NCBI GenBank assembly: GCA_030167865.1
Contig: JALAGF010002523.1
Coordinates: 1-48,646, forward strand
DNA from: Craspedostauros australis
Lineage: Eukaryota
Direction: 5' to 3'
DNA: 48,646 nucleotides
Shown here: positions 9,972 through 46,584 of the stretch, piece after piece
Layout: every line of letters starts with the position of its first letter
Position numbering within the stretch: position 1 is the first letter of the stretch
Position numbers and translations under genes: made by a program
Notes under the pieces: model-generated
Seen by the model: the letters and a program-made list of their open reading frames with translations, nothing else
Database searches by the model: none
What the model was told of the DNA's origin: nothing

Positions 9972-10619
9972 AACATCCGTACTGCTCGTACGAGTAATGC
10001 CGTTCTTGCGGCCAGATGGGATCTTCGAGGCGACGCTGAACCGAGCATGCAAGCGATGGAACACTCAGATGGGCGTACGAACAAAGAAGGGAGTGCATAC
10101 CGATGCACTATGAAGATGCAGTCCGAATGCTGCATGGACACAGGATGGTACGGATGCGCAGGCCTCGAATCTCGATTGCGTGATGTAATAGAACTTTAGA
10201 AGAAGAGGAAGCATTTTGAGCATGGACTCCAGTGTCGCTGCTGTAACATACTATTGTTCTCTCTCTCTCTCTCTCTTGAGCATTCTGCGATGACAGCAGG
10301 GACATGCGTGCTGTAATGTGCTGCTTCGAGTCGAGTCGAGCAGAGTGAAGCATGGTGGAGTGCTCTACAACCAGTCTACTCCGGAGTGGAGTCGCGTAAG
10401 GTGTTGATTCGAATCCTGTGGAAAACCGGAGATTCGAATGACCCCAACAGTAATGACGCACGCATTGCACCCATCAAAGTTCTCAAAAATGAGGACCGAA
10501 ACAACAAGGCACACAAGCCGCCCATCCACTTCAGCTCGACCTGACGATAGCGACCCAATCCTCGTTTGCAATACAATCGCACCCACTTGCACGAGTACTC
10601 GTAGCTGAACAGCAAGACA

Positions 10620-16330: not shown

Positions 16331-17021
16331 TATTAATATGTGATGCGGAGATGTACTATCATAGAGTATTTGTGCCACGCCCAGCTCGTGCGAACATGGT
16401 TCCACGAGTTCACTCTCTACAACTACACGTACGAGTCCACGTATGATTTGCAAGCCGAAGCGCCTTTCTGTCCCCCAACTGATTTTCTTCCGTTCGCAGA
16501 ATCGCGAGGAATTGTAGATCGAACTGCTTACGAGCTACTCCATCGCTTTGTGCCACTCTGTCAACTCTCCAGATTATACATAATATATAGTATAGTAGAT
16601 CGTACGTGTGCGAGTATGCGCAGCGCAAGGAGAATGCTTCTATGCACAACTTCAATGCAGCGGCGTGATGGGCTTAATTCCGCCACTATCATGTATTAAT
16701 GTTGGATACGATTCACTTCGTAAGAGACCAGGGCAGAGGAGATGAGAGCGCTCGCGAAGTAGAGGATATCTGTATGGACCACGCCGAACGAGCAGGACGT
16801 AGTGTGTAGGATACGTCGGCGTGAATTTGGGTGAGGCACCTTGTGCTGCTTGTTCCATCGACTCTTTTGATCGGCGCTCTGCGTTCTGTGGCCGTCCAGG
16901 CATGAGTGTGAATTGTTCCAGGTCTGTGCATTTGTACTCGTGAACATGCAGTGTAGTCTTCACGTCGTCAGATCTGTTCCAGATCAGTGGAAAACTGAAG
17001 AATATCATTGCCTGCAGAGAG

Positions 17022-21736: not shown

Positions 21737-22456
21737 TTAGACACGAAGGCTGGCAGGACTGTGTACAGAAGTGTGGACGAGATCAGGCTCTCCCATGATC
21801 TTGGCGACGTCCCGAGGCGTTTCGTGGAAGCGATTACGGGCATTGACGTCAGCATGGCAGGACTTGATGAGATACTCGATGCAATCGCGACTGAGACCCC
21901 AGCATGCCTGATGGAGCGAGGTGCTGTGATCGTCGTCCATGCTGTTGATGTCCATGTTGCAGCCCTCCACGAGATACTTGGCACAGCCCAGATGGCCCAG
22001 CCGGCATGCGTCATGAAGCGGGCTGTTTCCACCCAACCGGCGAATGTTGACATCGACATTGCACGCCTCCACCAAGTACTTGGCGCAATCCAAGTGGCCG
22101 CTGGTGCATGCTTCGTGGAGCAGAGATCGGCCGCAGATATCTTGGCTGCTGACGTCAGCACGGTACTGTTCAATGAGGATCTTGATCAATCCCAGTTTGC
22201 CCGCAGAGCACAAATGGTGCAGTGGGGTCTTGCCATCTATGTCTCTGCTATTGATCTCGACATTGCAAGATCCAATCAGGAACTGGATACACTCCATCTG
22301 CGCGTTGCTACATGCCGCATGCAGCGGAGTTCCGCGATGCGAATGTCTGACCATGTTGATGTCGCCGTCTGGATTCTGCTTCTTCCATTCCTTCACGACG
22401 TCCAAATTTCCTGCCTCCGCAGCGTCGATGAGTTTCATGCCTGTAATAGTTCGCAT
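21737..22456 (-). CDS. Ankyrin repeat protein (239 aa)
   Basis: About six ankyrin repeats (GTPLHAAC, GKTPLHHLC, GRSLLHEAC, GNSPLHDAC, STSLHQAC, ETPRDVA) with DIN/DVN linkers. Confidence 0.9.
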   Translation of the reverse strand: MRTITGMKLIDAAEAGNLDVVKEWKKQNPDGDINMVRHSHRGTPLHAACSNAQMECIQFLIGSCNVEINSRDIDGKTPLHHLCSAGKLGLIKILIEQYRADVSSQDICGRSLLHEACTSGHLDCAKYLVEACNVDVNIRRLGGNSPLHDACRLGHLGCAKYLVEGCNMDINSMDDDHSTSLHQACWGLSRDCIEYLIKSCHADVNARNRFHETPRDVAKIMGEPDLVHTSVHSPASLRV

Positions 22457-23659
22457 GGTGATGTGATCGATCTTCCGATGATTGGTTGGGTGTTGGTACT
22501 TCGAGACTTGAGAATCAGTGTTTCGGTACTAGATGATAACGTACAAATACGTTTAATCGTTGATTGGTGGTCGCGTATCAATTGTAATGAACGATGAATG
22601 CATGGAGAGTGAGTGAGTGAGATGCTCGAAGAATACTATCATGGCAGACATGAGATACGTGCATCTCCAGACAACGAATCGAAACTCAAAGCAATTGAAA
22701 GGGAAGTGCCAACTCGCATGGGCGATGGCGGTATCTGTGGTTGATACTCTGTCGACATCTTTCGGGGGTTCCGCGCATGTGCCATAGGAGTACATGCATT
22801 ATTCCATACGCAGTGTTTTTCTCACTCACTTGCTGGATCGCCTTTGGATTGGAACTGGTTTGATCGTCTTCGAGTGATGACTGCTGCGACTTGCGATGAC
22901 AATCTATTATATGTCGTTGGATCAGGTCGATGGAGATTGTGATCTGATTTCAACGCTGCGCCGTACTTCTTCCTCTTTCCGTCGGATGATCTCCGTGATT
23001 CTCTACGCTTTGGCTTTGATCGATCCACGATGCTATGCACCGTGGCGCCTGCATTCGTTCCACGACGACTGGCATCCCATCGTTAATTTCGCATTGATCT
23101 TGTAACACGAAGGGTGAGATTGCAGAGTTTTCTCCATTTGCTCAGCCAATGTTTGTATGGCATGTGCAGCTCGGCGCGGAATTGCTACGTTGAGTGGCCA
23201 GCAAGTGGAGCAGCTCCGTTGTTGCACCTAAAGGAACTCCGCCTGTTTGTTCGTGGCCACGGTTGGCCGGCGAAGGTTGGCCTTGATTGTCGAAATCTTG
23301 GTACCGTGGCCCGTCTTGCGACTACAATTGCAATTGCATCTACGCTTGGGTTGGTTCGTGCTGGCGCTGTCGAGAGGGATGGCTGCGCCGCTGGCAACAA
23401 ATGTTGTCTTGCCGCACTGGATGGTTTGGTTTGGTTTGGTTTGGCCACATCATCTGGGCCATTCGTACGAGTGCTCGTAGCGCATGCGACGATCACACGT
23501 TGGCACGGCTTGCACTGTTTCCATGAATAGAAACGTTGACCTCTGTTCGCGATGTGCGCAATGAGCGTTAACAGGGAAGGCCCGACACTGCGTGATACGA
23601 GTAGGTACGAAGAAGACGTATGTTGAGTGCTCTTTCGCTAGTATCGTACTCGTAGAGTA

Positions 23660-24799
23660 TTAGGCGCCTTCCTCGCTGGTGATGACCAAAGTACCCTCGT
23701 AGAAGACTGGCTTTGGTGGTCGGGTCCACAATGGTTGCGGCGGTCCACCAGCAGCATCAGCGGGCGGCTTGGCGGCGCTCTCCTTGGTCGTGGCTTGCTC
23801 GGCGGGTGGCTTGGCATCGCCATGGCCCTGCTGGAACGCCGTTCCCTCACGCCAGGCCTGGAAACTGGCGCGATCCTTCCAGATGGTGGTGCTGAGGTAG
23901 GTCGGTTCCTCGTTGGTCATCTCGACGGTGCCATGGCCCTTGGCCTGTCCGTCACGTCGCAGCATGGAGAAGGTGACGAAGCCATCGCAGTCCTTGAGCT
24001 TGCTCTCGCGTTGCGCCCATCGCTGCTCGAATGCAGGTGCGTTTTCGGGTGGGACGAAGAATTGATTCTGGGCGACGAAGCACTCGGTGGGGAGGTTGGT
24101 GACACCATCGGCAGTGACGCTGCGCCAGCCATCGACGATGTCGTACGATGTGTTCGGGGCCGTGGACTGCATGAGAAGTCCGTCGTAGAAGGCAGGACGC
24201 GGTGGTCCACGCAGAATGAAGGCGGAGTTGACCATGGTGGAAAGGAAGGCGCCGATGGAAGTGCCGCCGTGGGCCTCCTTGAAGGCCTCTCCCTTGCGCC
24301 AGGCGGAGAAGTGGGACTTCTTCTCCCAGATGGTGAAGGAGACGTAGTTTCCCTGGGCAGAGTCGGCATCGGTGCCCTCATCGTAGGCGCAGGAACCGTC
24401 GTCGTTAAGCTGCACGCGTCTCATGAGGTGGAAGTAGCGGAACCCATCGAGCGTGGCCAGCTTGGACTTGCGCGTGGCCCATCTCTTCTCGAACTTGGCG
24501 CCTTTGCCGCTGCGCACCGCGAAGCGGTTGGTGGCCATGTAGCGATCTCGTTTCAGCAGTCCCTTCGCGGTGAACTTGCTGTCGTCATCCTCGTCATCTT
24601 CATTGCTCTCATTGCCAGCGCCCTTCGCGGTGGAGGAAGCTTCGCTGGTTGTGGTGGAGAACAGGGAGGTGCTGCTCGTTGGAGCAACTGCCCCCAGCGA
24701 AGCCACTTGCGATTGCGATGGAACGGCAAAGGCAGTGGCAGTTCCCATCAACGTGACAGCGACGAGCGCTGCGATGAGTGTCGTTTCGGTCAGCTTCAT
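23660..24799 (-). CDS. Plastid-targeted tandem ABM-domain protein, IsdG/HmoA-like heme-degrading monooxygenase (379 aa)
   Basis: Start MKLTETT at 24799. Signal peptide ending ATA-FAVP plus a Ser/Thr-rich transit peptide. Two ABM domains: TNRF..FEKRW..DGF..TIW....F.AW....F..AH and QNQF..FEQRW..DGF..TIW....FQAW....F..GH. Confidence 0.85.
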   Translation of the reverse strand: MKLTETTLIAALVAVTLMGTATAFAVPSQSQVASLGAVAPTSSTSLFSTTTSEASSTAKGAGNESNEDDEDDDSKFTAKGLLKRDRYMATNRFAVRSGKGAKFEKRWATRKSKLATLDGFRYFHLMRRVQLNDDGSCAYDEGTDADSAQGNYVSFTIWEKKSHFSAWRKGEAFKEAHGGTSIGAFLSTMVNSAFILRGPPRPAFYDGLLMQSTAPNTSYDIVDGWRSVTADGVTNLPTECFVAQNQFFVPPENAPAFEQRWAQRESKLKDCDGFVTFSMLRRDGQAKGHGTVEMTNEEPTYLSTTIWKDRASFQAWREGTAFQQGHGDAKPPAEQATTKESAAKPPADAAGGPPQPLWTRPPKPVFYEGTLVITSEEGA

Positions 24800-25373
24800 C
24801 TTGGTCGTTCCAATGGCGTCTCTCAGCAGTGTCTGTTGGGAATCCAATCGCAATAGATCAAGTTACTGTTTGTGGCAAGATGATCTTGCTCGTCGATGCA
24901 GTTATTATGACTATTGTGGATGACGGCGGAAGCAGGCAACGCGAAGCAACATGTGCACAACGAGGAGGGCGAAGATACGATACTCGTGACACCAGAGAGA
25001 CAGAGGGCGCAATCAAGAACACAAGAGAGCGACCGAGTCAGAGAGATGGCGACAAAGAGTATCTTTGTGGATGAGTCCGATGGACCAGTTCGATTCAAAC
25101 GAAAGACGAGAAAAGTTGGAGAGACGCAGACGCCCGTTGGTCATTGGGCGTGACACCAACTCTTGTCACCGAGGATCACAAAGGAGATGCGCTCTGCAAC
25201 ACACTCTCTCCGGTTCTCTCGGTGCATCCTGGAGAGGAGAAACAGAGTACTACTATCCGTGTGGTGCTTCACTTCATCGTTTCCGTGGGGCACGGGGGTG
25301 ACACCGCACTGCGCTACGCTCCATGTCGTTTCATTTCATTCCGACTCCTTCCAACGCTTCATCAGCCGGCAAC

Positions 25374-26192: not shown

Positions 26193-27085
26193 GATGGGAT
26201 GGGATGGGATGGAATGGGATGAAATGGACCGCGCAGTCAGGCAATGGATTGAGCAAGGGGGGCGAGCTGCTTGCGCCATGCTCGTACCATACGTACATAC
26301 ATACTCAAGCAACAGCATGCATGGTGCTATGCGCTGCAATGCACACAATCATGGTACGTGGACAGGGGAACCAATGAAAGAAAGAAGAAGGAATCAATGG
26401 ATGAATGGATGAAAGAGGCTTGAAATGAACAACCAACCAACCGATCAACGAAGCAACCAAGCAAGCAAACTAAATGAAAAAACAACTGGACGGATGCATG
26501 GAGCGCAAGGTTGATTCCAGACCAACCATGGAGAGCCTGCAAATCACCAGTCAAATAAGCTACTGCACGTACTAAATACTAAAGTATAGCATAATATTAC
26601 ACAAGCTACAAGTGCGAACGCTGCGATCCACGTCGAGGACCATTCGAGTGCGCTGCACACATCAGCTGCTCTCCTGATACTCGTAATCGTGGATGGTATC
26701 GAGAGCTCTTCCATTTCGGGAGGAAGAAGAAGTTTGGCACACGAGTGGACAGGGATCCCGTTTGACGTCACCGGCAGAACCTTCCACAATCTTCGCCAAT
26801 GGCCGAAAAATCAGGATCCGCGTCGCGTTTTGGGTGATGTTCGGTGGTGATGGGACGTGGATTGGCATCAGCGACAATGGAGAGAGAAGAGTAGGTCGTC
26901 GGCTGCTGCGGAGCGTGCGCGAGCCATTGGTAGAGACACACGCAACGCTCACCTCAACTGCGCTCCTGGGAGCACGACCGCACCTGCAGGTTCCAACCAA
27001 GACACAACGGCGCAACCACAACCAAAGCTTGCTTCGATACCGACAGCGGGTGCTGACACAACCACAGCGCCGCAGCAAGTGCAGA

Positions 27086-30000
27086 ATGTCCTTGATCGCT
27101 GCCATCAACTCAAGCACAAGGACACGAACGATATCAAGCCTCAGTAGTAGCCTCAGTGGTAGTCTCAGTGGTAGCCTCAGTAGTAGCACCAGTAGTAGCA
27201 CTAGCATCCGCAGACGCAGACACAGACACAGCGCAGCCTTTCCATTGAGACGCTACCTGCCGCTGCTTCCCCTCTTCGTCTCATCCTTCGTGTGCAGGCG
27301 CTCCATCACCTCGCTTTCTTCTGCTGCTGCTTCTGCTCGCAACGGCGCCGCCACTGCATCAGCAACCTCAAGGCCTCCCTTCGCCTTCGCCTTTGCCATC
27401 CATCCCCAAAAGCAGACTCGCACTCTCAGCCGCGGCCTCTTTCCTGGTCAGAACTCCCACGGCATCAGCAGCAGCAGCAGCAGTACAGGCAGCAGCAACT
27501 TCCTCTCCACCATGTCCCCTGCCATGCCCCCTGCCATGTCCCCTGCCGCAGCAACAGCCGCAGGCGCCATCGACAGCACCCTGCCCAAGGCCGAGACGGG
27601 CATCCTGGATCTCTGGAGCAAGAGCCCGGAGGCCGATGGCCGCGGCATCGTCATCGGCATCATGGACTCCGGCTGCGACCTGGCGGCTGCCGGTCTGCAG
27701 ATCGCGTCCACGGGACAGCCGAAGTACATAGACTTCTTGGACTGCAGCGGCGACGGCGATGTCGACATGGCCAAGACCGCCAACATCACGCGTCCCGAGG
27801 ACGCTGCGGGGCCGCCCACAGTCAAGGGACTCTCGGGACGCACCCTCAAGCTCAGCCCGGACTGGCTGCCGGAATCCGCCACCGAGCTTCACCTGGGCGC
27901 CGTGCGTCTCTTCGACATCATCCCGGGCACCGTGGCGAGGCGCGTGCGCACGGAGCGCAAGACCTACTTCCAGACCCTGCACCACACCTCCACCTGCAGC
28001 GTGCAGGACCAGATCAAGACGCTCGAGGAAGCCGCCAAGGGGAAGGACGCGTCCAAGCTGCAGCTCAACGACGCCAAGACCTTGCTGGAGCAGCTCACGG
28101 CCAGCATGGAGGACTACGACGATGCGGGGCCGCTCATGGACGTCATCTCCTTCAAGGACGCCAGCGGCGTGTGGAGGGCCGTGCTGGATCTCAATGCCGA
28201 CGGCGATCTCACCGGCACTCCCGCCATGGCGGCCTTCGCCGTCGATCGCCAGATGGGCACCTTGGGCTTCGGATCCGCCGTCACCTACTGCTTCCAATTC
28301 TTCGAGGATGGCAAGCTCCTCAGCATCGTCACGGACGGTGGTTCCCACGGCACGCACGTCGCGGGCATCGCGGCTGCAAACTTTGATGATCCCAATGCAG
28401 CAGCCGCGTCCACGGATGGCGACGCAACGGCACCGGTACCAAATCCAAAGAACGGCGTCGCTCCTGGCGCGCAGCTGGTGGGGCTCAAGATTGGCGACGG
28501 CCGTGTAGACACCACGGAGACTGGAACGGCGCTGGTGCGCGGTCTCATCACCGCCAAGAAGTACAACTGCCACCTCGTCAACCTCTCCTACGGTGAACCA
28601 TCCTGGCAGCCTGACAATGGACACGGACGCGTCGCGCAGACTTTCGCGGATGCCGTCTACAAGTGGGGTATGACTGTCTTCACATCCGCTGGCAACAATG
28701 GACCGGCCTTGTCCACCGTGGGATCGCCAGGAGGCATCACGGCGCCCATCACCGTCGGTGCCTACGTCTCCCCACCCATGATGAGGGAGCAGTACTCCAC
28801 CTTGCCTTTGGGAGACGACGCCGACAAGCCCGACGAAGCGATCGGGCTGCGAGAAACATCCTACAGCTTCACGTCGCGCGGTCCAACACCGGATGGTGCT
28901 TTTCCTGACATCTGCGCTCCGGGTGGCGCCATCGCGCCTATTCCACGCCACACATTGCAAGGCAAGGCGCAGAAGCATGGCACGAGCATGTCGTCTCCCA
29001 ACGCCTGCGGCGTTGCAGCATGCGTCCTTTCTGCCGTCTTCCAAAAGCTCAAGGCCGCTGGCGGCGATGGAGAGATCATTGTCAATCCAAACGAACTCAA
29101 GCGTGCGCTCCTCAACACCGCCAAGCCAGTTGATGTCGCCGAGCCGTTCGGGCAGGGCATGGGCTTGATCTCCGCGGTCGATGCCGTCGATTACATCCTC
29201 CAGCACCATGGCAAGCAAGGCCAGGACACCAACTTCGAGGTCGCCGTATTATCCCGCGGCAACAGCAACACGGCGCGTGGAATTTACATCCGCAACGCCC
29301 CCGAGCTGCAGCATGGACCAATGACCTTTGATGTGCGCGTCACGCCACGATTTCAGCATGCCATGCAACGCACCGAAGAGGAGGTGGATGAAATCGTCAA
29401 TCTCGAGCTCGACATGGAATTCAAGGTGCAGTCGTACATTGGTGATGCCGTGGATTGGGTGTCGTGTCCCGATCACATGACCTTGCTGTCGGGACGGGAA
29501 CGCGGGCAATCATTCGCCGTTCGCATCGATCCCACCAAGTTGTCTCCTGGCGTGCATTACGCCAAGGTGCAGGCCATCGAAACCAAGGATCCGGCCCGCG
29601 GCGCTCTGTTCTCTGTGCCAGTCACCGTCATCGTGCCGCACAACATGGATGCCACCACGGGAACGCCGGGCGTGGTGGAACCCACGGAGAATGAATTTGA
29701 CTTGACGATGCCTTTCTTGCTCAAGCCAGGCATCCCCGAACGGCGTTTCATCACAGTCCCGCAGGGTGTCGAATATGCCATTCTCAAAATCCGCAAACCC
29801 AAGTCATCCAAACTCAACAAGGGACCTCATCGCATCATCGTTCACACCATTCCATTCACGAGCACAGACGTGCACCATGACATGGTCCAGTCCAAGCGAT
29901 ACCTCACGGTGAGAGAAGACGATATGGGAAATCCGCTCGAGGTCAAGCTGAGGGCACGAGGCGGAGCGACTCTGGAGGTTTGCATCCAGCTCTCATGGCT

Positions 30001-31762
30001 GTCCAACCCAGAACCGGTCGAGCTGGACACGACCCTGGAATTTCATTCCTACAACTTCAAGGCTGCACCGATGTTTGCCACGCACGCGCTTCGTATTGGA
30101 TCCTCCACGGAATTCGCACGTACCGAGGTTGGCGCGCCGCTGCGAACAGAGATGATCAATCCGAAGGCCACCTTGAAGAGCGTCCATCGCACCATCCGAC
30201 CGAAGAAGTGCACCATATCCACCGCACTTCCAGATCGCGACGTGTTGCTGCCATCGGATGCCGAGGTCCGCGCTGCTCCTGCCGATGAACCACCGGTGGG
30301 CACGCTCATTCACCAAGCCCATTTGGATTACGAATTCGAGTTGGATGCAAACGACATGTCCGTCACGCCACGATTGGCGTCCCTCTTCTTTCAGCTTTAC
30401 GACAGCCCGATCGACTCGCAGCTATGGGCACTCAAGGACTGCAACGGGCAGATCCTCCAGTACGGCGGGGCCATGCACGACTCATCCGCCGTCACGCTCA
30501 AGAAGGGCAAGTATTCGCTGAACCTGTTGCTGCGTCATCCAGAACGCGCGGTGCTCGATGCTTTGAAGGACATTCCGATGCGTCTCATGTTCGACTTGAA
30601 GGGGAGCAACGCGCTGGACTGCAGCGTGTACTCTGAATTTGATGCGGCATCGACGCCTGCCGTCACCGCAAAGCAAGACAAGGGCATCATCCCTCGCAAG
30701 GCGGTCGGCAAGCGCACCATGAAACGGGGCACCTACAAAAGTCTGTACGTGTCACGCCCAACGGGCAAGATGCCAACCTGGATCCAACCTGGCGACGTCA
30801 TGACCGGAACATTCTACGTCGACAAGGACAACGCACTGTCAGGCATGTCGTTAATTTACGAATTGCCACCGAAACCAGCCAAGAAGTCTGACGACAAGTC
30901 ATCATCATCATCATCATCATCGTCGTCGTCTGAGAGCAAGAAGGATGAAGATGACGAAGCGAAGGATGCGGAAGCATTGGAGAAGGCGATCTTCGAGGCC
31001 AAGCTGAAGCATCTCAAGACGCTGCGTTCCAAATCGGAGGCGTACGCCAAGCTCTCTGACGCGTTGAAGGAGGAGAAGCCAAACGATCTGAGTTTGAGGA
31101 AGGAATTGCTGGAGTATGCAAAGTCTGCCAAGAAACCAGAAGATGTGGAAGATGAAGATGCGTGGCGAGCTGGTGAGATCGCGACGGTCGTGGATGCCTT
31201 GACGGCAGAGGGCGGTCCTATTGACACCGCCAAGCTGGCGCAGTACTTTGGCTGCAACAGCAGCGCCATCGATGAAGATGAGGAGGAGGACAGCGAAGAG
31301 ACGAAGAAGGCGAAGGAGCTCAAGAAGGAGATGGACGATCAGCGCAAGACGCTGCGTTCAGCTCTGTACAAAAAGGCCAGCGCGCTGGGCAAGGCGTTCA
31401 TGAAGCTGAAGAGCACTGAGGGCAGCGCTGATGCAGACGTCGAGGCTGCCAACGAAAAGTTCGTGACCGCCATGAAGGAATGCAAGGTATGGGTCAGCGG
31501 CGCCAGCGATCTGTCGGGCGACGAAGAGAAGGAAGGATACGCGTTGCTTTCGGCGCAGCTCGACATTGCCAAGGGCAAGCCAGCCGCCGCACTGGCTGGT
31601 CTGCGCAAGGCGTTAAAGGACATGCCAGCGAGTTCCAAGAAACGCAAGGAAGTTTCGCGGCAGGTCATTGAGCTGTACCGCACGCTGGGACTGGAGCATT
31701 GGGCTGAGAATTGGGAGAATACCATGTTCCAGCAGTTCCCCGTCACCTCGCAGACGCTTTAA
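27086..31762 (+). CDS. TPP2: Tripeptidyl peptidase II (subtilisin S8 family)
   Basis: Catalytic triad motifs IMDSGCD, GSHGTHVAGIAA and GTSMSSPNA. TPPII-typical LKIGDGR, NLSYGE and SAGNNGP, a large insert between Asp and His, and a long C-terminal domain. The start is uncertain (ATG 27086 or 27512). Confidence 0.92.
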   Translation: MSLIAAINSSTRTRTISSLSSSLSGSLSGSLSSSTSSSTSIRRRRHRHSAAFPLRRYLPLLPLFVSSFVCRRSITSLSSAAASARNGAATASATSRPPFAFAFAIHPQKQTRTLSRGLFPGQNSHGISSSSSSTGSSNFLSTMSPAMPPAMSPAAATAAGAIDSTLPKAETGILDLWSKSPEADGRGIVIGIMDSGCDLAAAGLQIASTGQPKYIDFLDCSGDGDVDMAKTANITRPEDAAGPPTVKGLSGRTLKLSPDWLPESATELHLGAVRLFDIIPGTVARRVRTERKTYFQTLHHTSTCSVQDQIKTLEEAAKGKDASKLQLNDAKTLLEQLTASMEDYDDAGPLMDVISFKDASGVWRAVLDLNADGDLTGTPAMAAFAVDRQMGTLGFGSAVTYCFQFFEDGKLLSIVTDGGSHGTHVAGIAAANFDDPNAAAASTDGDATAPVPNPKNGVAPGAQLVGLKIGDGRVDTTETGTALVRGLITAKKYNCHLVNLSYGEPSWQPDNGHGRVAQTFADAVYKWGMTVFTSAGNNGPALSTVGSPGGITAPITVGAYVSPPMMREQYSTLPLGDDADKPDEAIGLRETSYSFTSRGPTPDGAFPDICAPGGAIAPIPRHTLQGKAQKHGTSMSSPNACGVAACVLSAVFQKLKAAGGDGEIIVNPNELKRALLNTAKPVDVAEPFGQGMGLISAVDAVDYILQHHGKQGQDTNFEVAVLSRGNSNTARGIYIRNAPELQHGPMTFDVRVTPRFQHAMQRTEEEVDEIVNLELDMEFKVQSYIGDAVDWVSCPDHMTLLSGRERGQSFAVRIDPTKLSPGVHYAKVQAIETKDPARGALFSVPVTVIVPHNMDATTGTPGVVEPTENEFDLTMPFLLKPGIPERRFITVPQGVEYAILKIRKPKSSKLNKGPHRIIVHTIPFTSTDVHHDMVQSKRYLTVREDDMGNPLEVKLRARGGATLEVCIQLSWLSNPEPVELDTTLEFHSYNFKAAPMFATHALRIGSSTEFARTEVGAPLRTEMINPKATLKSVHRTIRPKKCTISTALPDRDVLLPSDAEVRAAPADEPPVGTLIHQAHLDYEFELDANDMSVTPRLASLFFQLYDSPIDSQLWALKDCNGQILQYGGAMHDSSAVTLKKGKYSLNLLLRHPERAVLDALKDIPMRLMFDLKGSNALDCSVYSEFDAASTPAVTAKQDKGIIPRKAVGKRTMKRGTYKSLYVSRPTGKMPTWIQPGDVMTGTFYVDKDNALSGMSLIYELPPKPAKKSDDKSSSSSSSSSSSESKKDEDDEAKDAEALEKAIFEAKLKHLKTLRSKSEAYAKLSDALKEEKPNDLSLRKELLEYAKSAKKPEDVEDEDAWRAGEIATVVDALTAEGGPIDTAKLAQYFGCNSSAIDEDEEEDSEETKKAKELKKEMDDQRKTLRSALYKKASALGKAFMKLKSTEGSADADVEAANEKFVTAMKECKVWVSGASDLSGDEEKEGYALLSAQLDIAKGKPAAALAGLRKALKDMPASSKKRKEVSRQVIELYRTLGLEHWAENWENTMFQQFPVTSQTL

Positions 31763-31923: not shown

Positions 31924-33335
31924 TCATGGCAACTCGTGGGCCCCGAGCAAATCCGCCGTCTTTTGCCGAACCCCCAGCGTGCAATTCAAAGCATGGATTG
32001 GAGACCGCTGGTGTTCCTCAACGTTTTCGTTGGACAGACTAAGCCACGCCAGGCTGTAAAAGGCATGCAGCATGTCGGGATACGCTCCAACCATCTTTCC
32101 GAATCCACCAAACCGCGGTGTCTGGCAGGTCATGATGAAATTACGCAATGGCAGCTGCTGCAACAGCCGATCCTGCCCCAGCAACCGCAGCGTTCCGCCA
32201 ATCCAGTACGAGTAGCACGTATCCTCCGCCTTGCCGGGACGCCCCTGCATGCCACCGATTTGACGACGCACGCACCACGACACCAAATCTCGTCGCCAGG
32301 TCATGCCAGCATCATCGTCGTCCAAAACTTCGTTCAATTTGCCCATGAGCGTGAGCGCCGCTGTGCCACAGAATGTCGAGCCACCATGTCCCTCCTGTTG
32401 GCGTTTGAATCAGAGCATGAAGGTAGAACATTGTATTGCATGAAACGATGTGGTGTGGCGTGGTGTAGTGTGGTGTTAGTACGACGCAGTGAGTGGCTCC
32501 GCACAATATTTGGAGTAGGCGAGCTGCCCAATGGCTCCGCATCCCGTGCATCATGACTGACAAGAACACCTTGACAACCACCATCGTCGTTGAAAATGGG
32601 TGAACACAAAGATAGATGCAGGTACATAGATAGATAGATCGATAGATAGAGATACAGAACAAATGTACGCACCTGACCGGGTATCAACCCGATGGCACCA
32701 TCAAAGGAGCGACACGACCGGATGTAGTCCACCGCACGATCGACGTCGCACCCGGACCAATCCTGGAGGACGTAGGATATGACGCAGGCGCAATATAGAA
32801 AGCGCAGATCGTGCTCCGTGTTGTGACCCGAGACGCAGTTGAAGCTGCCATCGGGCTGCTGCAAGGATTTGAGCGAGGCCGTGATGGCGCTGGCATTGAT
32901 GCGGGACAGGTCATCGCCCAGCGTGCGCAGGGAGACCAACGCCGTGTACGTCATGGCGATGTGTCCTTGCAGGTATTCCTGTTTGGGACTCTCGCCCAGG
33001 AATGTGCCACCCAGGAATCCGGCCTGATCGGCAGTCGAGACGGGGGTGCCGCCGTCGTCATTGTCACGGCCATCGTCAATTGCACCAGCTGCGACATCAC
33101 CTTGCCTCGTCAGCTGCAGACTGTAGATCCATTCGATGAGCACGGGCTTGGACAGGTGCAGCTGTCGCAGACGGTCCGGGTCATCCCAGACGCCCAGCAA
33201 GTCCAGCGCCTGCACCGCGAAATGGACCAAGGTGAGACGGTTCGTGTCCAACTTGGTGTATGGCTCCGGCAGCTTCTGCAGAGAGTAGGCAAAGTACCGA
33301 ATGTGGCGTTCCGTATCGAAGGTTGGCAGGCTCAT
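31924..33335 (-). CDS. PGGT1B: Geranylgeranyl transferase type-1 subunit beta (2 exons: 33335-32673, 32394-31924; 377 aa)
   Basis: Motifs DTNRLTL, GHIAMTYTAL, EHDLRFLYCA, spliced PGQ|EGHGGSTFC, GRPGKAEDTCYSYWIG and PDMLHAFYSLA. Confidence 0.9.
32395..32672 (-). other. Spliceosomal intron (278 bp) of GGTase-I beta, containing a (GATA)n tract
   Basis: Donor GTGCGT at 32672 and acceptor CAG ending at 32395, phase 0. Removal restores the prenyltransferase repeat motif E.HGG.TFC. Confidence 0.88.
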
Positions 33336-33873
33336 GGTTCTGTGCATGGACCGGCGTGGACAGCTGTGGGAAGTTGTGGGAAGTTGTGGCAGGTATGAGT
33401 GCGGATGGGTTTTGTCCGAGCTTGGGCTTTGGGAGATGTGCTCTCCTGGTCGAAAGGGCCTCTTCTGTCCTTGCTTGTGGTCGTGTCTCTGTTCGGTTGG
33501 GTTCGTGTGGTATCTTTGGTCGACGGCGACTGCGGATGGTCGACACAACAGGTAGAAATCGCGCAGAGGCCACAAGAGAAGAACAGTCGAAGGGGTCATG
33601 TGGAGAATGGTCCCAAGATGACTTTTCTGCTTTGTGTCGCAATTCGCGCAAACGAAGAGATGGCTTTCTCACATCTTTTTCTCTTTCTGTCACATCGATC
33701 ACTGATCAGCAAAAGATCATAGTTGTAGAATACTATTCTCATAAATACTTCGAGAGAGTTGGAGAAGTGAAACGTGCAGTAAGCAAGGAGCAAAAAGGAG
33801 CATCCTAACCCACTCTCTCACACGGTTGAGTGACAACAACTCAGCACAACACAACACAGCGCAGCCCATCACC

Positions 33874-35202
33874 ATGCTGCAGATATTCGATGACAACGAT
33901 GAAGGCGCCGCATGGAAGTTCCCGCTGCTGCTGTCAACCCTGGCGGGTGCATCCACCTGCGTGGGCGCAGCCGTGGTCTTCTGCTTCTCCGCCGAGGTCA
34001 TCCGCGACACCATGACGTTCTCCCTTGCGTTGGCCGGATCCGTCATGATCACGGTCTCCGTCATCAGCATCGGGCCAGAATGCCTCAACGGCATCGCCTG
34101 GACGATGGATGAGGCTGCAGCCGACGAGGACGAGGAAGACTCATCGTTCACGCCGATGTACCTGCTCTTCGCGAGGCTCTGCTGGTTCTTTGGTGGTTGC
34201 ATCAGTTACATCCTCCTGTCCAAGCTGGCATTTCCTGAACCGACGGATCTGGTGCTCGAAGGCGGTGGTGAGGGCGGTCATCATGCCCACGGTGGCGGTG
34301 GCGGCATCGGTGGACACAGCAGCCATGCAATCAGCAAATCACCTCGAGATGTGCTCACGGAGGAGAACTACGAGATGCAAAAGCTCATGGGACCAGCGGA
34401 TTCCGATGGATTCGGTTCCCATCCATCATCCAACACTTCCACTACAAATGACAAATTCCAGCCACGCCGATCCAGCACATTCAGCAGCGACGATGGCGAC
34501 GGCGCGGAGGCATTCTCAGCAACGCGCAAGAAGGATGCTGCCCAAGCACGTCAAAGGCGGTCACCCAAATCCCCCAAATCGCCGTGCGGCCGTTCCGAAG
34601 ACGACAAGAGCGCGGGCAGCTATTCCAATCAAAAACAGAAACACTCCAAATCCACGCACGCCGTCTTCCAATGGTCCTCCGGCGCGGACCTCCAATCCGA
34701 CGAGGCCAAACGATCCTGGCGCGTCGCGATGCTCCTGTTCGTTTCGCTTTTATGCCACAACTTCCCCGAGGGCCTCGCCGTGGCCGCCAGCACAATGGAG
34801 TCGCGCCATCTCGGCATCACCGTGGCGGTGGGCATCCTGATTCACAACATCCCCGAGGGTATCGCGATCGCGGTACCGTGCGTGGCCGCGCGCCCCGACT
34901 CGCCGTGGCTGGCCTTCCTGCTGGCGAGCGGATCGGGATTGGCGGAACCGCTGGGTGCCTTCCTGGCGCTGTGCGTGCTGCCGAGCGGCAAGCGCATGCA
35001 GACGTCGGCCTTTCTGTCGATGGAGTGCATACTGGCGTCGGTGGCGGGCATCATGATATCGGTGGCCTTCGTGGAGCTGTATCCGGAGGCCTGGAGGCAT
35101 GGGATGGGGCAATGGAAGGATGCGGCGAAGACGATGTGGTCCATCGGTCTTGGAACTGTCCTGGGTGCCGTCATGATGGTAATTACAGAGTTATGCATTT
35201 GA
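33874..35202 (+). CDS. zupT: ZIP family (ZupT/GufA-type) divalent metal transporter (442 aa)
   Basis: TM4 HNFPEG and TM5 HNIPEG metal motifs, SGLAEPLGA, and a long cytosolic loop with GHHAHG..GHSSH. Confidence 0.9.
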   Translation: MLQIFDDNDEGAAWKFPLLLSTLAGASTCVGAAVVFCFSAEVIRDTMTFSLALAGSVMITVSVISIGPECLNGIAWTMDEAAADEDEEDSSFTPMYLLFARLCWFFGGCISYILLSKLAFPEPTDLVLEGGGEGGHHAHGGGGGIGGHSSHAISKSPRDVLTEENYEMQKLMGPADSDGFGSHPSSNTSTTNDKFQPRRSSTFSSDDGDGAEAFSATRKKDAAQARQRRSPKSPKSPCGRSEDDKSAGSYSNQKQKHSKSTHAVFQWSSGADLQSDEAKRSWRVAMLLFVSLLCHNFPEGLAVAASTMESRHLGITVAVGILIHNIPEGIAIAVPCVAARPDSPWLAFLLASGSGLAEPLGAFLALCVLPSGKRMQTSAFLSMECILASVAGIMISVAFVELYPEAWRHGMGQWKDAAKTMWSIGLGTVLGAVMMVITELCI

Positions 35203-35776
35203 TCTTGATTGCGGCAGTGCATTGTCTTGTGTTGAGTGCTGGAATACTCGACGTGTTGCTCCAGAGACTTCTTTGTTGATGTGCGAGTGTGCTGCTAATC
35301 GTGCAGGTAATGGACGGCACGCTGTTTCTCTCAAGGTGTGAGGTGGTGTTGGTGATTGGAGTCGAACCATCTTGTGTCATCGAACTTGCACTGAGACGTC
35401 ATGCAATCATGACAAGTTGATGTTGGTGTGAGCATCAGACATCCATCCACTCGAATGTGGTTGTCAAACAACTATTGTACACAACACCACAGCATGCTCT
35501 GGTCTTGATCGCAAATCTACCAACTCTCGTGAACTATGTTGTGTTATCGTTACCATATGCATTCCATCACTCTACTCGGAAATGAATGAAGCTGTGGATC
35601 AATGTCGGCAACGGATATGAGCGAGATTGGTCTGCGGATGCTGCAACCCAAACGTGTTGCTGATCGCATTCCTATGCCAGAGTCGCCTTTCCGACCATCT
35701 CCCATTCCAGGTGCCTGTTGGTGGTGTGTCTTTGCAAGATACCAAGACGCAGTATCTAAAGCTGCAAAGACGGTGT

Positions 35777-35866
35777 GGTTCTTCAGTCTGGTTTGCACGG
35801 CTCGATCAGAGATTCAAAGGAGAATTTGAAATCGAGCTCGATGCATACCAAACGTCATTCATACCT
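35777..35866 (-). promoter_or_regulatory. Candidate SECIS-like stem-loop downstream of the peroxiredoxin stop codon
   Basis: Minus strand AUGAC (35858-35854) and UGAA (35785-35782) flank a long, manually paired stem: GUUUGGU/ACCAGAC, UGCA/UGCA, GCUCGAU/AUCGAGC and UUCAAA/UUUGAA. Confidence 0.55.
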
Positions 35867-36076
35867 AACAGGTGTGGGAAGAGGGAAGTGTTGGAGGGAA
35901 GGGGACGTGATGGGAGGAATGCGAAGCTACAGCATCCAGGTCTCCTCAGGGACGGGACATGCCGAATGGCAAGCAGTCCCCTTGGATGCCAACTCCTGGG
36001 ACGTGCGACGGGACTCCATGTCTGCGCTGAGGACAGCGCATGTCTGTGCCCACCGGAAAGGGGGTCCAATGGAGCT

Positions 36077-36664
36077 CTAGGCTTCAGCCTTGATGGCCTC
36101 GAGCATGGCATCGTGGAGGGTGTCGGTTGGGTCGGAGTCACCGGCTGGGTCGTCCTCGGACTCGGAGACGGCGACGTACTTGACCTCGCCGTTGACGACG
36201 TGGATGGCGAAGCGCTTGGAGCGTCCGATGATGCCGACGGAGGGTGGGCCTGGGTGGGTCATCTCCATGCCGAGTTCCTTGGTGAACTCGGCGGCTGGGT
36301 CACCCATGAACTTGACGATGTTGTCAGCGTAGGTGGCGTCGCCGATCTGGTCGGCGGCCCAAGCCTTCATGACGGCTCCGTCGTTCACGCAGTAAACGAG
36401 GACCTCGTCGACTCCAGCCTCCTTGAGAGCGTCTTGATTCTCAAGGTAGCCTGGAACCTGGATTGCAGATCAGGTTGGGGTGAAGGCTCCTGGGAGGCCG
36501 ACGATGATCATGTTCTTGTCGGCGGCGTACTCGTCGATCTTGACGAACTCAGGAGGGAAGCCGGAGTGGAGGCTGGCGGCTGGGAGCTTGTCGCCGGCCT
36601 TGATGGTGAAGGCGAGGCTGGAGGCCACCGAGAGGGCGGCGGTTGCAAGAGAAAGGACTCTCAT
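36077..36664 (-). CDS. PRDX5: Prx5/type II peroxiredoxin with probable selenocysteine (TGA at 36472-36470), 195 aa, with signal peptide
   Basis: One continuous frame: ...IKAGDKLP...VGLPGAFTPT[TGA]SAIQVPGYLENQDALKEAGVDEVLVYCVNDGAVMKAW...GRSKRFA... The TGA sits exactly at the peroxidatic Cys of the PGAFTPTCS motif. Confidence 0.88.
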
Positions 36665-37647
36665 GGTTGCTTCTGTTGCTTGGCAGAGTTAATTTTATGA
36701 CATCACAGGGGCTGTGCCATCCCCAAGGAGTAGTAGTCGAGCGCCCGCAGTTCGTATTGGTGGGCTGTTCCGCACTCTGGTGAGGCGATGAAATTACGCC
36801 TTCATTTCTGAGTGGCCATCTGCACGAAAGCCGCAAAGTTCGAGCAGAATGCAATCCAAAGATAGCGCAGAAACACGCAACTCTCTCTTCGTTGGTGGCT
36901 GTTGGCCCCAGTTCTCATCCATTGGCTGCGCGGTGTCACCACAGGTGGCGCGTGTCAAGAGCGAAAGAGAGGGAGAGACGTCGGAGAAATCCTCGCGTTT
37001 GCCGATTCAGCAGGGCGTGCGTCATCATCGGCATACCCGCACGACGGTCTGACAATGGCGAATCTCCATGAAGAATCGAGTCGTGCATGAATCAAGATCA
37101 ACACGACTCCACGATCCGGTTTGATCACATTGACTCATTCGAAGTTCAATACGCAACGGTCGAATGTGAGCGAATTCAAATAACAACTCCCAATGTCGGT
37201 ATGTTTGTATTAAACAATGAATATAGTATATCAAGTTTACTTATGGGATGTGTCGTGGATGCATGTCGCATCTTCTCCAAACATTATTCGAAACTTTCTC
37301 CAATGATCTTTGCTGTGATGTGAGGATCACAAACACGAATGAAATCAGCAATTCTTCTGCTAGTGGGAGTGAACGAGGTGGTGGTGTCAATCGGTGCAAC
37401 CAACTTTGCTCTGATGGCGTGGCAACGGCAACGATGTCGATGAAGTGACGAGAAGCTTGTGCCCCGCACCGAGAATGACATGGGGAAAGCAATACGAGCA
37501 GAGCGTGCACCTGGTGGTGCGATACGAAGATCTTCTCTCGCCCTTCTCGTTTCGTGGACACAACATCAACAACATCAACAGCATCAGCAACATCACTGAC
37601 TCTGTGATCACAAGAAGAACAAAGCCACCTCAAGCCAACCTACCACC

Positions 37648-42418: not shown

Positions 42419-43528
42419 CTAATCATTGGCGATGGCAGCAGCGGTCGTGCTTATGTTCCTGCGACCGGTCTGCCTTGCCGAGAACTTCTTGTCCTCATGC
42501 GTGTATGCCAGGACCAAGGCAGCATCCAACAAGCCCAGGTGGGTTCTGTTGACGTTGCGCCGTTCGTTTTCTGGCTCGTTCTTCAGGATCCACCCACCCT
42601 TCTTCGATGGCACGATCATCTTTCGCCTCACCGACATGTTGGACTGCAAGATGTGATGGATCTCGCGGCATGCTTCCTTGTCGGATGCCACGTCGTAGGT
42701 TTGGCTGTCACGGTTGTACTTGAAGAATCGACCACCGCGACGGTACACCCACTGCACCATCCTCTCTGCGTACGCTCGGCGGTCGTGGGTCCAGATGCCC
42801 TGCCAAATCTTCTTCATGTCCCGCAGGTGCTCGAGGAGCAGCTGATTGCCCACGTTGCGGCGGTGTCCCGGTCCTTTCCCAATGATGACATCGAAGAGCG
42901 CGCGCCTGTCCGTGGGCCTGCTCTTCGCCACCTTGTACAACCCAGCTTGAGTTGCGAAGCCAACCGCGATGTGTCGCTTCAGCATCTCGTCCAGCATGCT
43001 GGAGATGATCTTTCGCAGTTGGGCCTGATCCTCTTCGGTGTCGTCGAATTCTTCAAGATCGCTGCTGGTTCCTTCCGTTGTTGCGAAGTTATCATTTTCA
43101 TCGCCCTTTGTGGCCTCTTCCTCATCGCTATCATCGGTGGCGTTTCCCAAGCTGTCGATGCCTTCGCAATCCTCTGCATCAAGACAGACGGAGTTCTTCG
43201 TGTCTCCTTCATCGTCATCTTCGTCTTTTCCTTCCTCCTTCTCCAGCTTCTCACCCGAAGGCAGACCGCAGTCGCGATCAGCATGTTGTCCAGCTCGACT
43301 CTCATCCTCACCGCCATCGGCAATGCCCATGCTCACTTGAGCACCATCGCATCCGTCCACTGACAACTCTTCATCCGAAGAGCCAGGCTCCGATTCGCAG
43401 ACGGTGGTACTGCACTCGTCTTCGGAAGCATCATTGGAAGCTCGGATCATGGCCTCTTCTCTCTCGTAGTCTCCAGCGCGAACATCGATCAGTGCGATGT
43501 TGTTGAGTGGTAACGGGCGTGACATCAT
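42419..43528 (-). CDS. Acidic N-terminus + DUF6824-like domain protein (369 aa)
   Basis: DVIIGKG.....VGN.....GGRFFK.....Y......A..EI pattern typical of the diatom-expanded DUF6824 family; Asp/Glu-rich N-terminal half. Confidence 0.7.
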   Translation of the reverse strand: MMSRPLPLNNIALIDVRAGDYEREEAMIRASNDASEDECSTTVCESEPGSSDEELSVDGCDGAQVSMGIADGGEDESRAGQHADRDCGLPSGEKLEKEEGKDEDDDEGDTKNSVCLDAEDCEGIDSLGNATDDSDEEEATKGDENDNFATTEGTSSDLEEFDDTEEDQAQLRKIISSMLDEMLKRHIAVGFATQAGLYKVAKSRPTDRRALFDVIIGKGPGHRRNVGNQLLLEHLRDMKKIWQGIWTHDRRAYAERMVQWVYRRGGRFFKYNRDSQTYDVASDKEACREIHHILQSNMSVRRKMIVPSKKGGWILKNEPENERRNVNRTHLGLLDAALVLAYTHEDKKFSARQTGRRNISTTAAAIAND

Positions 43529-44704
43529 ACTCGTAGCGATGTGTGGTGCCTTTCTTGTACTTTCTGGAGGATGTGGTCGAGGTCGAGGTCGCTTGCGAGA
43601 GAGGATGCAGCTGCGTGCTTCTAATGTTGTGCGCTATGAGTTCTTCTCGCGAAAGGCGCGAACTATGATGGCGGAAGCTGCTGCTGAAGTCGAGCGTTGT
43701 TCTCTGGAGGCTGTTGGAGAAGTTGCAGTGCCCAGGATGATGTCTGGCTCAACGCATTGGTTGGCGTCGCGTCAAGAGCCAAGCCGATGCCTGTGATTCT
43801 GGGATGTGAGAAATCGTGATCGCGATCTCTGTTCTCTTTCTGCGAGTCCTCTGGTTGCTCACTTGCCGAACGCTCAGTTGGACATGATGGATGATGATGG
43901 GCGATGGCACTGAAAAGAACAAGAGGCACGTCTCCTCCACTGATCTCGCTTCCCCAGCCGCTTCGGAAGATGATCATCTGTTCTTTCGTGCAGTCTGTGG
44001 CCCAGACGAGCATGGCATTCATCTCTCTCCTGGGTGTCAACGGAGAGGAACAGTCGCAGGCACCGACATCATTTGCGTGCCCAACGAGTCGGCATGTCCC
44101 GATTTCGCGAAAGCATGATGGCAGGCAGTTGCACAAGGACAGAACTGGTGAAGAAACTTGGAAAAGTCCGCGTGACTCACGACTCGTGAAACAGCGTCCT
44201 CAACTTCCGCTTGGGACATTTTCGTTGGCTGAGCATGAATCGAAGTGGTCGTTTGTGGCGCGAAGATTGCTCTGGCACTATGTTAGGCCCAGTTCCATTT
44301 CGAAAGATACCTTTTGGGTCATTCCTGGCAAACACGACATCCCCGCGACTTTGCTGATCAGCCAGCAATGCTGTCACAACACAACACCAGTTCGCACCAT
44401 CACTTCTGCTGGCACGTACGTATGAATGATGTTCCAACACAGTACTATACGAGCTATTGGTCGAATGATCAGCTTCAGACAGGGAATGAACAGTTAAGTG
44501 TAATACTTCAGGATCCATGGTCGCACTACTGGGTGTGCGTATGGTATGAGTAGACTCGTAGTGTGGTATCTGTACGAGCCACTCTCTCGTGCGATTGCAC
44601 AACAGGTGCACTCTGTAAATTCTCGGGAGATGGGAATGAACGCGTGGTGCCTTGTGAAGGTGGCTGCGATCAATACTCCAGAGTAGTCGTACGAGTGGGA
44701 ACCA

Positions 44705-45817
44705 TCACACACGCATTGCTCCGTGGGATGAATGGCGGGCAGCTCGCTGGTGCGTTTTCATCTTTGCTCGCTGGTTGCGTCTGAGAGTACGGAAACAGTT
44801 CTGGATCTTGCGGATGATGCATCGTGGCGACAATTCATCGTACTTTCCTGTGCTTTGATTCAGGCAAAGGAAGCGTCCACCACTGCTCACAACGATCTCC
44901 TTGACTTCTGCAATTATGCTCAGCTTCCTTGGTCTTGACATCCCACCACCGTAGTACGCAACAATTCTATTCTTGACTGCCCCAATGTAACGTCTGTATC
45001 CGATGGCAGTGCTGCATTTCGCACCCTTTCCACACAGGATGTCATAGTTGGTCACCTCGCTCTCTGTTATCCCAACGGTGCATTTGCGATGGGGAACATC
45101 GTGCGGCGCATTTGGTGTGTTGCAACCTGCGTGGTCGATGCAACGTTGGTTGCCATGAGAGGATGAAGTCATGGCAACGTTGGCGACGGTGGCTATGTCC
45201 TTCGTCCGTGCCATCGGGGCTGCTCGCACTGGTGGGAACGACGGAAATGTGACGTGCTGTTCAATTGTACTTTGATTTGGAGCAGCGTCGCTGTTCGGGC
45301 AGGTGATGTCGTCGCTTGCCTCTTCGTGTATGTGTGCGACTGCGGTTGCGTTCAGACTGGCGGCGTGATCTTGCTGACTGCATATCAGGGTCAGATAATC
45401 GAGTGGATCCACTATGCCTGAATCACATTCGTCTAACCATGGCTCGGCAACTTGCACAGGACTGTCGTGGGTGCTCCATCTGGCCGCGCCTTCGTGCAGG
45501 GGGCTTGCAAGGGAGATTGCACTTGAGAGCAAACTGCGGTCGTTTCTGTTGCCAAGGAACGTGCCGAAATGATTGGCAGTAGCCACAGTCTCGGTATTGA
45601 CGTGCTGGTTCCAGGTGCCCACAACATGATCGTTCAAATGGTACCGCTCGCCTGGTGCTTGCGGCTCGTTTGATCCACCCGAGAACATTTCCATCGTTTT
45701 CGCAAATGTTGGCCTCAACACGAGTACTTCGTTGGCTTTAATACCAGTGTACGAGTCGAGCAGGGTAAATGCAGATTGCTCCACTCTATTCATTTCGTTC
45801 GCGTGTTGGAAGAGCAT
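44705..45817 (-). CDS. DUF6824-like domain protein (start uncertain)
   Basis: C-terminal DILCGKG...GYRRY...K.SII.EV..IV...GGRFL.....Y.EL......KIQNCFR. Confidence 0.65.
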   Translation of the reverse strand: MLFQHANEMNRVEQSAFTLLDSYTGIKANEVLVLRPTFAKTMEMFSGGSNEPQAPGERYHLNDHVVGTWNQHVNTETVATANHFGTFLGNRNDRSLLSSAISLASPLHEGAARWSTHDSPVQVAEPWLDECDSGIVDPLDYLTLICSQQDHAASLNATAVAHIHEEASDDITCPNSDAAPNQSTIEQHVTFPSFPPVRAAPMARTKDIATVANVAMTSSSHGNQRCIDHAGCNTPNAPHDVPHRKCTVGITESEVTNYDILCGKGAKCSTAIGYRRYIGAVKNRIVAYYGGGMSRPRKLSIIAEVKEIVVSSGGRFLCLNQSTGKYDELSPRCIIRKIQNCFRTLRRNQRAKMKTHQRAARHSSHGAMRV

Positions 45818-46584
45818 GTCGAGATGCAAGAGGAGTATGAGGAGTAGTTGGATCTCATCTGATTTCAGCGTGGCCGTGTTGGCTTGAGACCAGCAAAAGG
45901 GACTGTGTATTTTCATCCAAAGCGATGATGACGGCCTCCTCATACGAGAACAGAGGCTTGCATGCTGAGGTCGCTCTTCATCGCTGATGTGTGTTTGGGG
46001 CTCCCGGCAACTACGATTGTTTCTCAATCAAAACTATAGTATTCCACGAATATCGTGAAGTCTGTAGAGGAGAGTCCGTGAGATGTTGGTCGCAGCCTCG
46101 GAGGTGGACCGATCTCTCGCTCTGTTCAGAGAGAGAAAGGAATCACCGACTCAATGTCGCGCAAGGAACATCAGCATCAACCGCAGAACCAGCGACCAAA
46201 GTGGGCGGAACCTTGATGCGTCAGTTCTCATGTCTGAGGGAACGGTCGCACAGGACTGCTTCGCAAGGCTGATGGAGTTGATGATGGCAGAGGCATGTTC
46301 GTCCCGAAGTTCTCAGGTGAATACACGTCGCCAAGTGATGTGCGAGCAAGTCTGTCTTGGGACGACTGGTGCAAGAGGAAATTTCTCATTCCAAGTCGTC
46401 TCGACAAGTTGCCAGCAGAGAGCAGAGGACGTATGTACGAGTAGAGTAGAACAGAGTCAAGTATGCATCTTTCTATCACTATTGTACGAGTGCTCTACCT
46501 TACGGACATGTCGGCCAAGCCGTCGCTCATCCTTGGGGTCTCTTGATTCCTTCCGATCTTGTTCCCTCAGGTAGTTCCCTTCTT

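Follow-up and report, generated by a model that had tools for sequence, protein, structure and literature searches.

The DNA analysed here, a stretch of 48,646 nt hereafter called the window, carries on its minus strand a gene that, judged by its sequence and a predicted structure, codes for a Prx5-type (type II) peroxiredoxin in a single exon (36077..36664), with a hydrophobic leader at the N-terminus, an in-frame TGA in the active-site motif and a candidate SECIS element in the 3′ flank. Minus-strand positions 36664 to 36077 form one reading frame of 195 codons followed by a TAG stop at 36079-36077. Its sole interruption is a TGA at 36472-36470, which is codon 65 (U65), in the context PGAFTPT-TGA-SAIQVPGY, and the frame otherwise contains neither a frameshift nor a second stop. 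In the program-made list of open reading frames the gene appears as two entries, one of 64 amino acids with an ATG start (36470..36664) and the other of 103 amino acids from an internal GTG (36077..36388), both in the same minus-strand frame and separated by 27 codons reading SAIQVPGYLENQDALKEAGVDEVLVYC. The first-pass annotation had taken these two entries as a single frame, and rightly so: reading TGA as U gives 195 residues, of which U65 is the only one to depart from the standard reading.

The peroxiredoxin gene is convergent with a gene for a ZIP zinc transporter at 33745-35199 (+; Pfam Zip, E 6.2e-27). Opposite the peroxiredoxin gene itself, an antisense ORF at 35621-36697 (+) matches no Pfam family and was put down to the GC3-rich coding sequence that it overlaps. 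Elsewhere in the window lie an uninterrupted frame of 1691 codons for a tripeptidyl-peptidase II-like subtilase (26687-31759, +), a prenyltransferase gene of at least two exons (32337-33668 and 31927-32409, −), genes for an inositol monophosphatase (10605-11627, +), an ankyrin-repeat protein (21740-22528, −) and an ABM-domain protein (23663-24862, −), and two neighbouring ORFs with a DUF6824 domain each (42422-43633 and 44708-46027, both −; E 8.5e-08 and 3.1e-09, respectively). At 16763-18182, frames of short tandem peptide repeats (HLL.VHLL..., TSS.ATSWTF...) are found on both strands, and the region is likely a tandem repeat at the level of DNA.

One public sequencing run, X1, contains 84% of the sampled words. 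Its kind was guessed to be RNA, and it may also be DNA or the assembly's own sample; for these reasons X1 is not taken as independent proof of transcription. Within 35400-37100, the X1 contigs cover 35505-36631. The two contigs, 35505-36278 and 36277-36631, have no differing letters, gaps or joints, the TGA included, and the former (774 letters, 0 differing, 0 gaps) runs without a break on the minus strand from the C-terminal half of the coding sequence to the candidate SECIS element. The TGA had been expected to appear unspliced and unchanged in RNA-seq reads, and the X1 contig that crosses the codon, with RNA as the guessed kind of the run, has neither a joint nor a difference there: within the X1 data set, the TGA is confirmed and is not spliced out. 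The two contigs abut at 36277-36278, and their word depths are 454 and 7.4, values that cannot rank the parts of the gene.

Protein family, fold and active site

When the frame is read through the TGA, it matches the Pfam Redoxin family, which has the thioredoxin fold, with an E-value of 5.7e-23 (81.8 bits against a cut-off of 26.6) over residues 22-171, a range that spans the TGA. The read-through protein also matches 27 distinct PDB sequences, all of which are Prx5, type II or Ahp1 peroxiredoxins save one entry titled thioredoxin reductase, the best match being 3uma (E 2e-24). In the PDB alignments, codon 65 falls on the Cys of PGAFTPTCS, which confirms the proposal that the TGA occupies the catalytic position of Prx5. 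The 27 codons between the two listed ORFs, which had been described as normal Prx5 sequence, likewise align residue for residue with the solved Prx5 structures. Because the Redoxin match spans the TGA and peroxiredoxins of the PDB have Cys aligned with it, the frame is more than a product of chance.

An AlphaFold2 model built from an alignment of 25 sequences has a mean pLDDT of 86.7 and a pTM of 0.84, and in this model residue 65 directly precedes a helix of residues 66-75. The top Foldseek matches in the PDB are all of the Prx5 type, including Vibrio vulnificus Prx3, PRDX5 of Arenicola and human, 3uma of Sinorhizobium meliloti and PrxD of poplar, with TM-scores to the target of 0.84-0.93. 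Throughout the 25 aligned sequences, P58, G59, A60, F61, T62, P63, T64, S66 and Q69 are invariant, so that the active-site motif P58-G-A-F-T62-P-T-U65-S66 (36467..36493, −) is conserved on both sides of the TGA. The PxxxTxxC motif is present as P58GAFT62PTU65, in which UGA stands where Cys would be encoded. R148 and R151, which align to the RSKR of 3uma, are also invariant, and C92 is nearly so; one of R148 and R151 would be the catalytic arginine. Taken together, the Redoxin and PDB matches, the predicted fold and the invariant residues lead to the conclusion that the gene, as far as sequence and model can tell, is that of a Prx5-type peroxiredoxin whose catalytic position is occupied by UGA.

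The solved Cys-type Prx5 structures (human PRDX5, 1hd2; poplar PrxD, 1tp9; Arenicola PRDX5, 2wfc; S. meliloti, 3uma) share with the predicted protein the same fold, the PGAFTPxCS motif and the Arg-bearing strand RSKRF, at 30-39% identity, but they have Cys where the gene described here has UGA. Unlike them, the predicted protein begins with a hydrophobic leader and ends in an acidic extension (DDPAGD...) shared with its diatom relatives. The leader, MRVLSLATAALSVASSLA, is followed by F19 (36611..36664, −) and looks like a signal peptide. The AlphaFold2 blocks of residues 1-20 have a pLDDT of only 51-60, and in relatives ...SAF or AAF is found just ahead of the mature domain. The junction of the leader with Phe resembles the 'ASAFAP' motif of plastid targeting in diatoms, and the leader may have a targeting role.

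The codon among relatives and constraint downstream of it

The names among the best 120 of 1662 protein relatives include the diatoms Corethron, Dactyliosolen, Eucampia, Cylindrotheca and Nitzschia. In these 120 proteins, the residue recorded at the site is W in 87 and C in 21, and in the remaining 12 it is another residue or the motif was not found. Trp cannot act as the peroxidatic residue of a peroxiredoxin, and therefore the codon was checked on DNA. For this comparison, 81 motif sites were collected in 80 loci from metagenome and metatranscriptome contigs. The codon at the site is TGA in 55, TGC in 21, TGT in 4 and TCA in 1, so the exchange between TGA and a Cys codon anticipated by the first-pass annotation does occur at codon 65 (55 TGA against 25 TGC or TGT). 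The TGA sites belong to the closer loci (40-62% identity), and the TGC and TGT sites are mostly in more distant, bacterial-looking loci. One relative of the Cys form, P0011, is 60% identical in a gapless alignment of 186 residues that places its Cys exactly at position 65. We read the W in the protein records as a TGA translated by gene callers, a reading that was checked on the DNA loci rather than protein by protein.

It had also been claimed that gene finders would truncate or split such a gene, and several records bear this out. The closest relative among the shorter database proteins, one source of which is a marine transcriptome project, is 92-95% identical and is recorded in two pieces, one of 64 amino acids ending in ...PGAFTPT and the other a C-terminal piece of 95 amino acids. 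Contigs of the same two lengths, 1119 and 1229 nt, are given for each piece's cluster, from which it would follow that the two pieces share one contig. Two other relatives, P0107 and P0110, begin just past the UGA codon, and the Nitzschia inconspicua model P0120 skips the codon (PGAFTP|IPNYLENQ). One related locus, L030, has two active-site motifs within one frame, PGAYTPT and PGAFTPT, each with a TGA after it (stops at 978 and 1353), which could be tandem genes or a fusion with two Sec residues.

Relaxed selection downstream of the TGA had been named as a mark of a pseudogene. In the alignment of 25 sequences, 31 of the 43 invariant columns fall after residue 65. The in-frame GC3 is 0.83 before the TGA and 0.80 after it; the remaining downstream frames have values of 0.67 and 0.39. 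In comparison with six TGA-bearing loci, downstream pN is 0.21-0.28 and pS is 0.53-0.90 (pS being largely saturated), and upstream pN, at 0.28-0.36, is above downstream pN. From the conserved columns, GC3 and low pN, relaxed selection after the TGA is excluded; purifying selection and codon bias are both retained there.

The meaning of TGA elsewhere in the window was also considered. The ZIP frame stops at TGA after matching its Pfam profile as far as position 320 of 323, and W102 of the peroxiredoxin gene is encoded by TGG. The window has 51 other stop-to-stop segments in which one or two TGAs occur, and in none of them does a Pfam domain extend over a TGA; the sole Pfam match among them, the prenyltransferase, lies between the two TGAs of its segment. 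Given the ZIP stop, the 51 segments and the TGG of W102, a general reassignment of TGA is unsupported.

A candidate SECIS element in the 3′ flank

On the minus strand, 221 nt past the stop codon, a stable hairpin is found at 35868-35773 (35773..35868) that probably serves as the SECIS element of the gene, as suggested by a scan for core and stem, by the stability of its fold and by a covariance model. Its core is AUGA at 35858-35855 with the partner UGAA at 35785-35782 (GA at 35784-35783) and 12 stem pairs, and it was the one candidate given by a gap-free scan for AUGA...GA with a stem over the 780-nt 3′ flank. Only two matches to AUGA...GA with 12 pairs occur on both strands of the whole window (97 kb), and 12 pairs were reached by 16 of 2000 dinucleotide shuffles of the 3′ flank. 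The region folds as one long hairpin with an MFE of −36.7 kcal/mol (z −4.47), and none of 200 shuffles folds as well.

A covariance model, R1, was made from 15 elements of related loci, the window being excluded, with an 8-bp helix above the core. Its best match in the window is this same hairpin, with a modest score of 17.1 bits and a rough E-value of 0.05. The second match in the window (14.6 bits, E 0.22) is at 35576-35625 (+), where no selenoprotein gene is seen, and it shows how high the noise of R1 reaches. This second match, which lies opposite the 3′ flank of the peroxiredoxin gene and about 375 nt downstream of the TGA stop of the ZIP gene, combines a very short loop with two non-standard pairs, has no TGA-interrupted ORF nearby and is probably noise. 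When R1 was run with no filters on 47 loci not used in training, all 13 matches of at least 11.5 bits were downstream of the stops of TGA-bearing ORFs and on the coding strand, and the best match elsewhere in these loci scored 11.4 bits. L008 and L023, whose elements had been held out on purpose, gave 24.6 and 17.0 bits, respectively, and with default filters none of 20 matches at E up to 1 was in a Cys-type locus. Since the training elements of R1 had been picked by a scan that requires stem pairing, a count of covarying pairs would be circular and is not used as support.

How does the hairpin compare with known SECIS elements? It agrees with canonical eukaryotic SECIS elements (type I and II) in its place in the 3′ UTR, in its AUGA...GA core and in the stability of the helix that rises from it. 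With UGAC/UGAA, the core agrees with the published consensus UGAN/KGAW (PMC3753652), and its context GAAUGACG...CUGA recurs in relatives. In contrast to the canonical elements, the hairpin lacks the unpaired AA or CC at 10-13 nt from the core, as seen in a scan with the primary pattern, and it has a rod-like upper stem of about 70 nt with single unpaired A residues. It consequently fails the primary pattern of SECISearch, which is described as NTGA_10-13_AA/CC_15-39_GA (PMC2375036). Candidates in L005, L021, L028 and L032 have a similar long, rod-like upper stem.

Other searches gave blank or mixed results. The strict SECIS scan (core, at most one mismatch, helix I) was blank over the 3′ flank. 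With the published primary pattern there were five raw matches, and a stem of 8-9 pairs was present in just one of them, a CUGA site at 35809. This weak site was judged a less likely SECIS than the AUGA site, since its UGA is preceded by C and the site falls within the stable hairpin. The Rfam SECIS families had no match on 35400-36900, on 35760-35885 or in 20 related loci, and were silent also on six relatives with canonical-looking elements; as these six were likewise missed, the blank is uninformative. No tRNA, tRNA-Sec included, was found in the window by ARAGORN. In a census by gap-free scan, a canonical element was found in 18 of 52 TGA loci, core plus helix only in 14 and none in 20, and the corresponding numbers for 22 non-TGA loci were 1, 2 and 19.

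As a tentative and rather doubtful extension, the SECIS elements of this gene and of a subset of related diatom Prx5 mRNAs (for example those of L005, L007 and L021) might be a lineage-specific variant with a long rod. The AUGA/UGA core would be kept in such a variant, and the canonical unpaired AA or CC 10-13 nt above it would possibly be absent. Were this true, pattern-based SECIS finders would miss the variant, and the selenoproteomes of diatoms would be undercounted. In another related locus, L024, two nearly identical canonical SECIS elements are found in the same 3′ flank, at 759-819 and 1151-1211, with scores of 41.3 and 40.0 bits.

Readings of the UGA codon and the predicted enzyme

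The reading preferred here is that a nuclear gene of a diatom-like alga very probably encodes a Prx5-type peroxiredoxin in which Sec replaces the peroxidatic Cys. The first-pass annotation had called the product a Sec-containing enzyme, a view now strengthened by the alignment of the codon with the catalytic Cys, by the presence of UGA in relatives, by selection downstream of the codon and by the SECIS-like hairpin. Could the UGA instead be a true terminator, or be leaky for Trp, Cys or Arg through a near-cognate tRNA, so that the gene would make mainly a 64-residue peptide and use no selenium? The lack of the canonical apical AA or CC, the blank Rfam search and the TGA as the normal stop of the neighbouring ZIP gene would all be in keeping with termination, but a 64-residue product would be without the whole fold and the catalytic residue, and yet conservation, codon bias and purifying selection extend over the 130 downstream codons. 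Retention of UGA exactly at the position of the catalytic Cys in 55 loci marks Sec rather than leaky termination, and the 3′ flank has a SECIS-like core with its stem; termination or leaky readthrough is very unlikely. It is an extremely small chance that the gene is a pseudogene or that the codon is truly TGC or TGT and was altered in sequencing or assembly. One base separates TGA from either Cys codon, and the sole run found to contain the stretch may be the assembly's own sample; yet the covering X1 contig has no differences, 55 related loci have TGA, a relative of 92-95% identity breaks at the same point, and the frame keeps its GC3 and a pN well below pS with no frameshift or further stop.

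Removal of the TGA as part of a short intron can be practically dismissed. The Nitzschia inconspicua model that omits the codon is in its favour, but splicing would delete the catalytic residue together with the invariant S66 and Q69, the X1 contig is continuous over 36277-36631 with no joint, and the 27 codons past the TGA align with solved Prx5 structures. A removal such as that in P0120 would take out only a few codons, presumably far too short a length for a spliceosomal intron. Just as negligible is the chance that TGA is a general sense codon in this organism, for example for Trp, in spite of the W recorded in 87 of the best 120 relatives: W102 of the same gene is written TGG, the ZIP frame ends at TGA with its profile almost complete (320 of 323), no Pfam domain crosses a TGA in the 51 other segments, and Trp is unfit as a peroxidatic residue.

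A bacterial Sec-containing peroxiredoxin is PrxU of Eubacterium acidaminophilum. In the diatom Thalassiosira pseudonana, 16 selenoprotein genes including two for peroxiredoxins have been described, and the Sec tRNA has been sequenced (Lobanov et al., 2007; PMC2375036). A later survey counts peroxiredoxin among the Sec proteins that are spread most widely through the algae, and puts the selenoprotein genes of diatoms at 20-44 (Jiang et al., 2020; PMC7539508). For another diatom, Fragilariopsis cylindrus, several copies of tRNA-Sec are recorded (Santesmasses et al., 2017; PMC5330540). The Sec-peroxiredoxins of T. pseudonana and other algae, compared here by their description in these texts only, are likewise peroxiredoxins with an in-frame UGA and a SECIS in the 3′ UTR (PMC2375036; PMC7539508). 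They differ in that the candidate SECIS described here would fail the pattern of those studies.

Sec-peroxiredoxins of diatoms have thus been known since 2007, and this gene is at most one more member of an established type. Its correct annotation adds one selenoprotein to the antioxidant set of the organism and bears on the selenium demand of marine diatoms. Standard gene finders split or truncate the gene, and the public records of the family are wrong in having W at the site, fragments or a skipped codon. The atypical shape of the candidate SECIS is the sole part of possible specialist interest.

An outline of how the Sec-containing peroxiredoxin would be made and would work is as follows. 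The UGA at codon 65 would be recoded to Sec in translation, for which the 3′ UTR hairpin (35868-35773) would recruit a SECIS-binding protein together with the elongation factor specific to Sec, loaded with Sec-tRNA(Sec). In the predicted enzyme, the selenolate of U65 would be placed at the start of helix 2 beside T62 and R148/R151, and, if Sec chemistry operates at position 65, it would attack peroxide and become a selenenic acid. The selenenic acid would then be reduced by a thiol partner, most likely glutaredoxin with glutathione or thioredoxin, possibly through the nearly invariant C92.

Glutaredoxin may be the preferred reductant, by analogy with two related proteins. One is a relative of 287 amino acids, P0046, in which a glutaredoxin is fused to the Redoxin domain with W (presumably TGA) at the peroxidatic position, and which points to glutaredoxin as the reductant of the clade. 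The other is the Prx5-glutaredoxin hybrid of Haemophilus influenzae (1nm3), a structural relative with a similar Prx5-type domain (E 1.5e-18, Foldseek rank 22). Unlike the hybrid, the gene described here has no glutaredoxin domain, and glutaredoxin is its putative partner. At codon 149 (36218-36220, −), between the two invariant Arg residues, most relatives of the Sec type have Cys (GRCKRF), and the protein encoded in the window and a few close relatives have Ser (GRSKRF), a difference that may bear on a mechanism with a resolving Cys.
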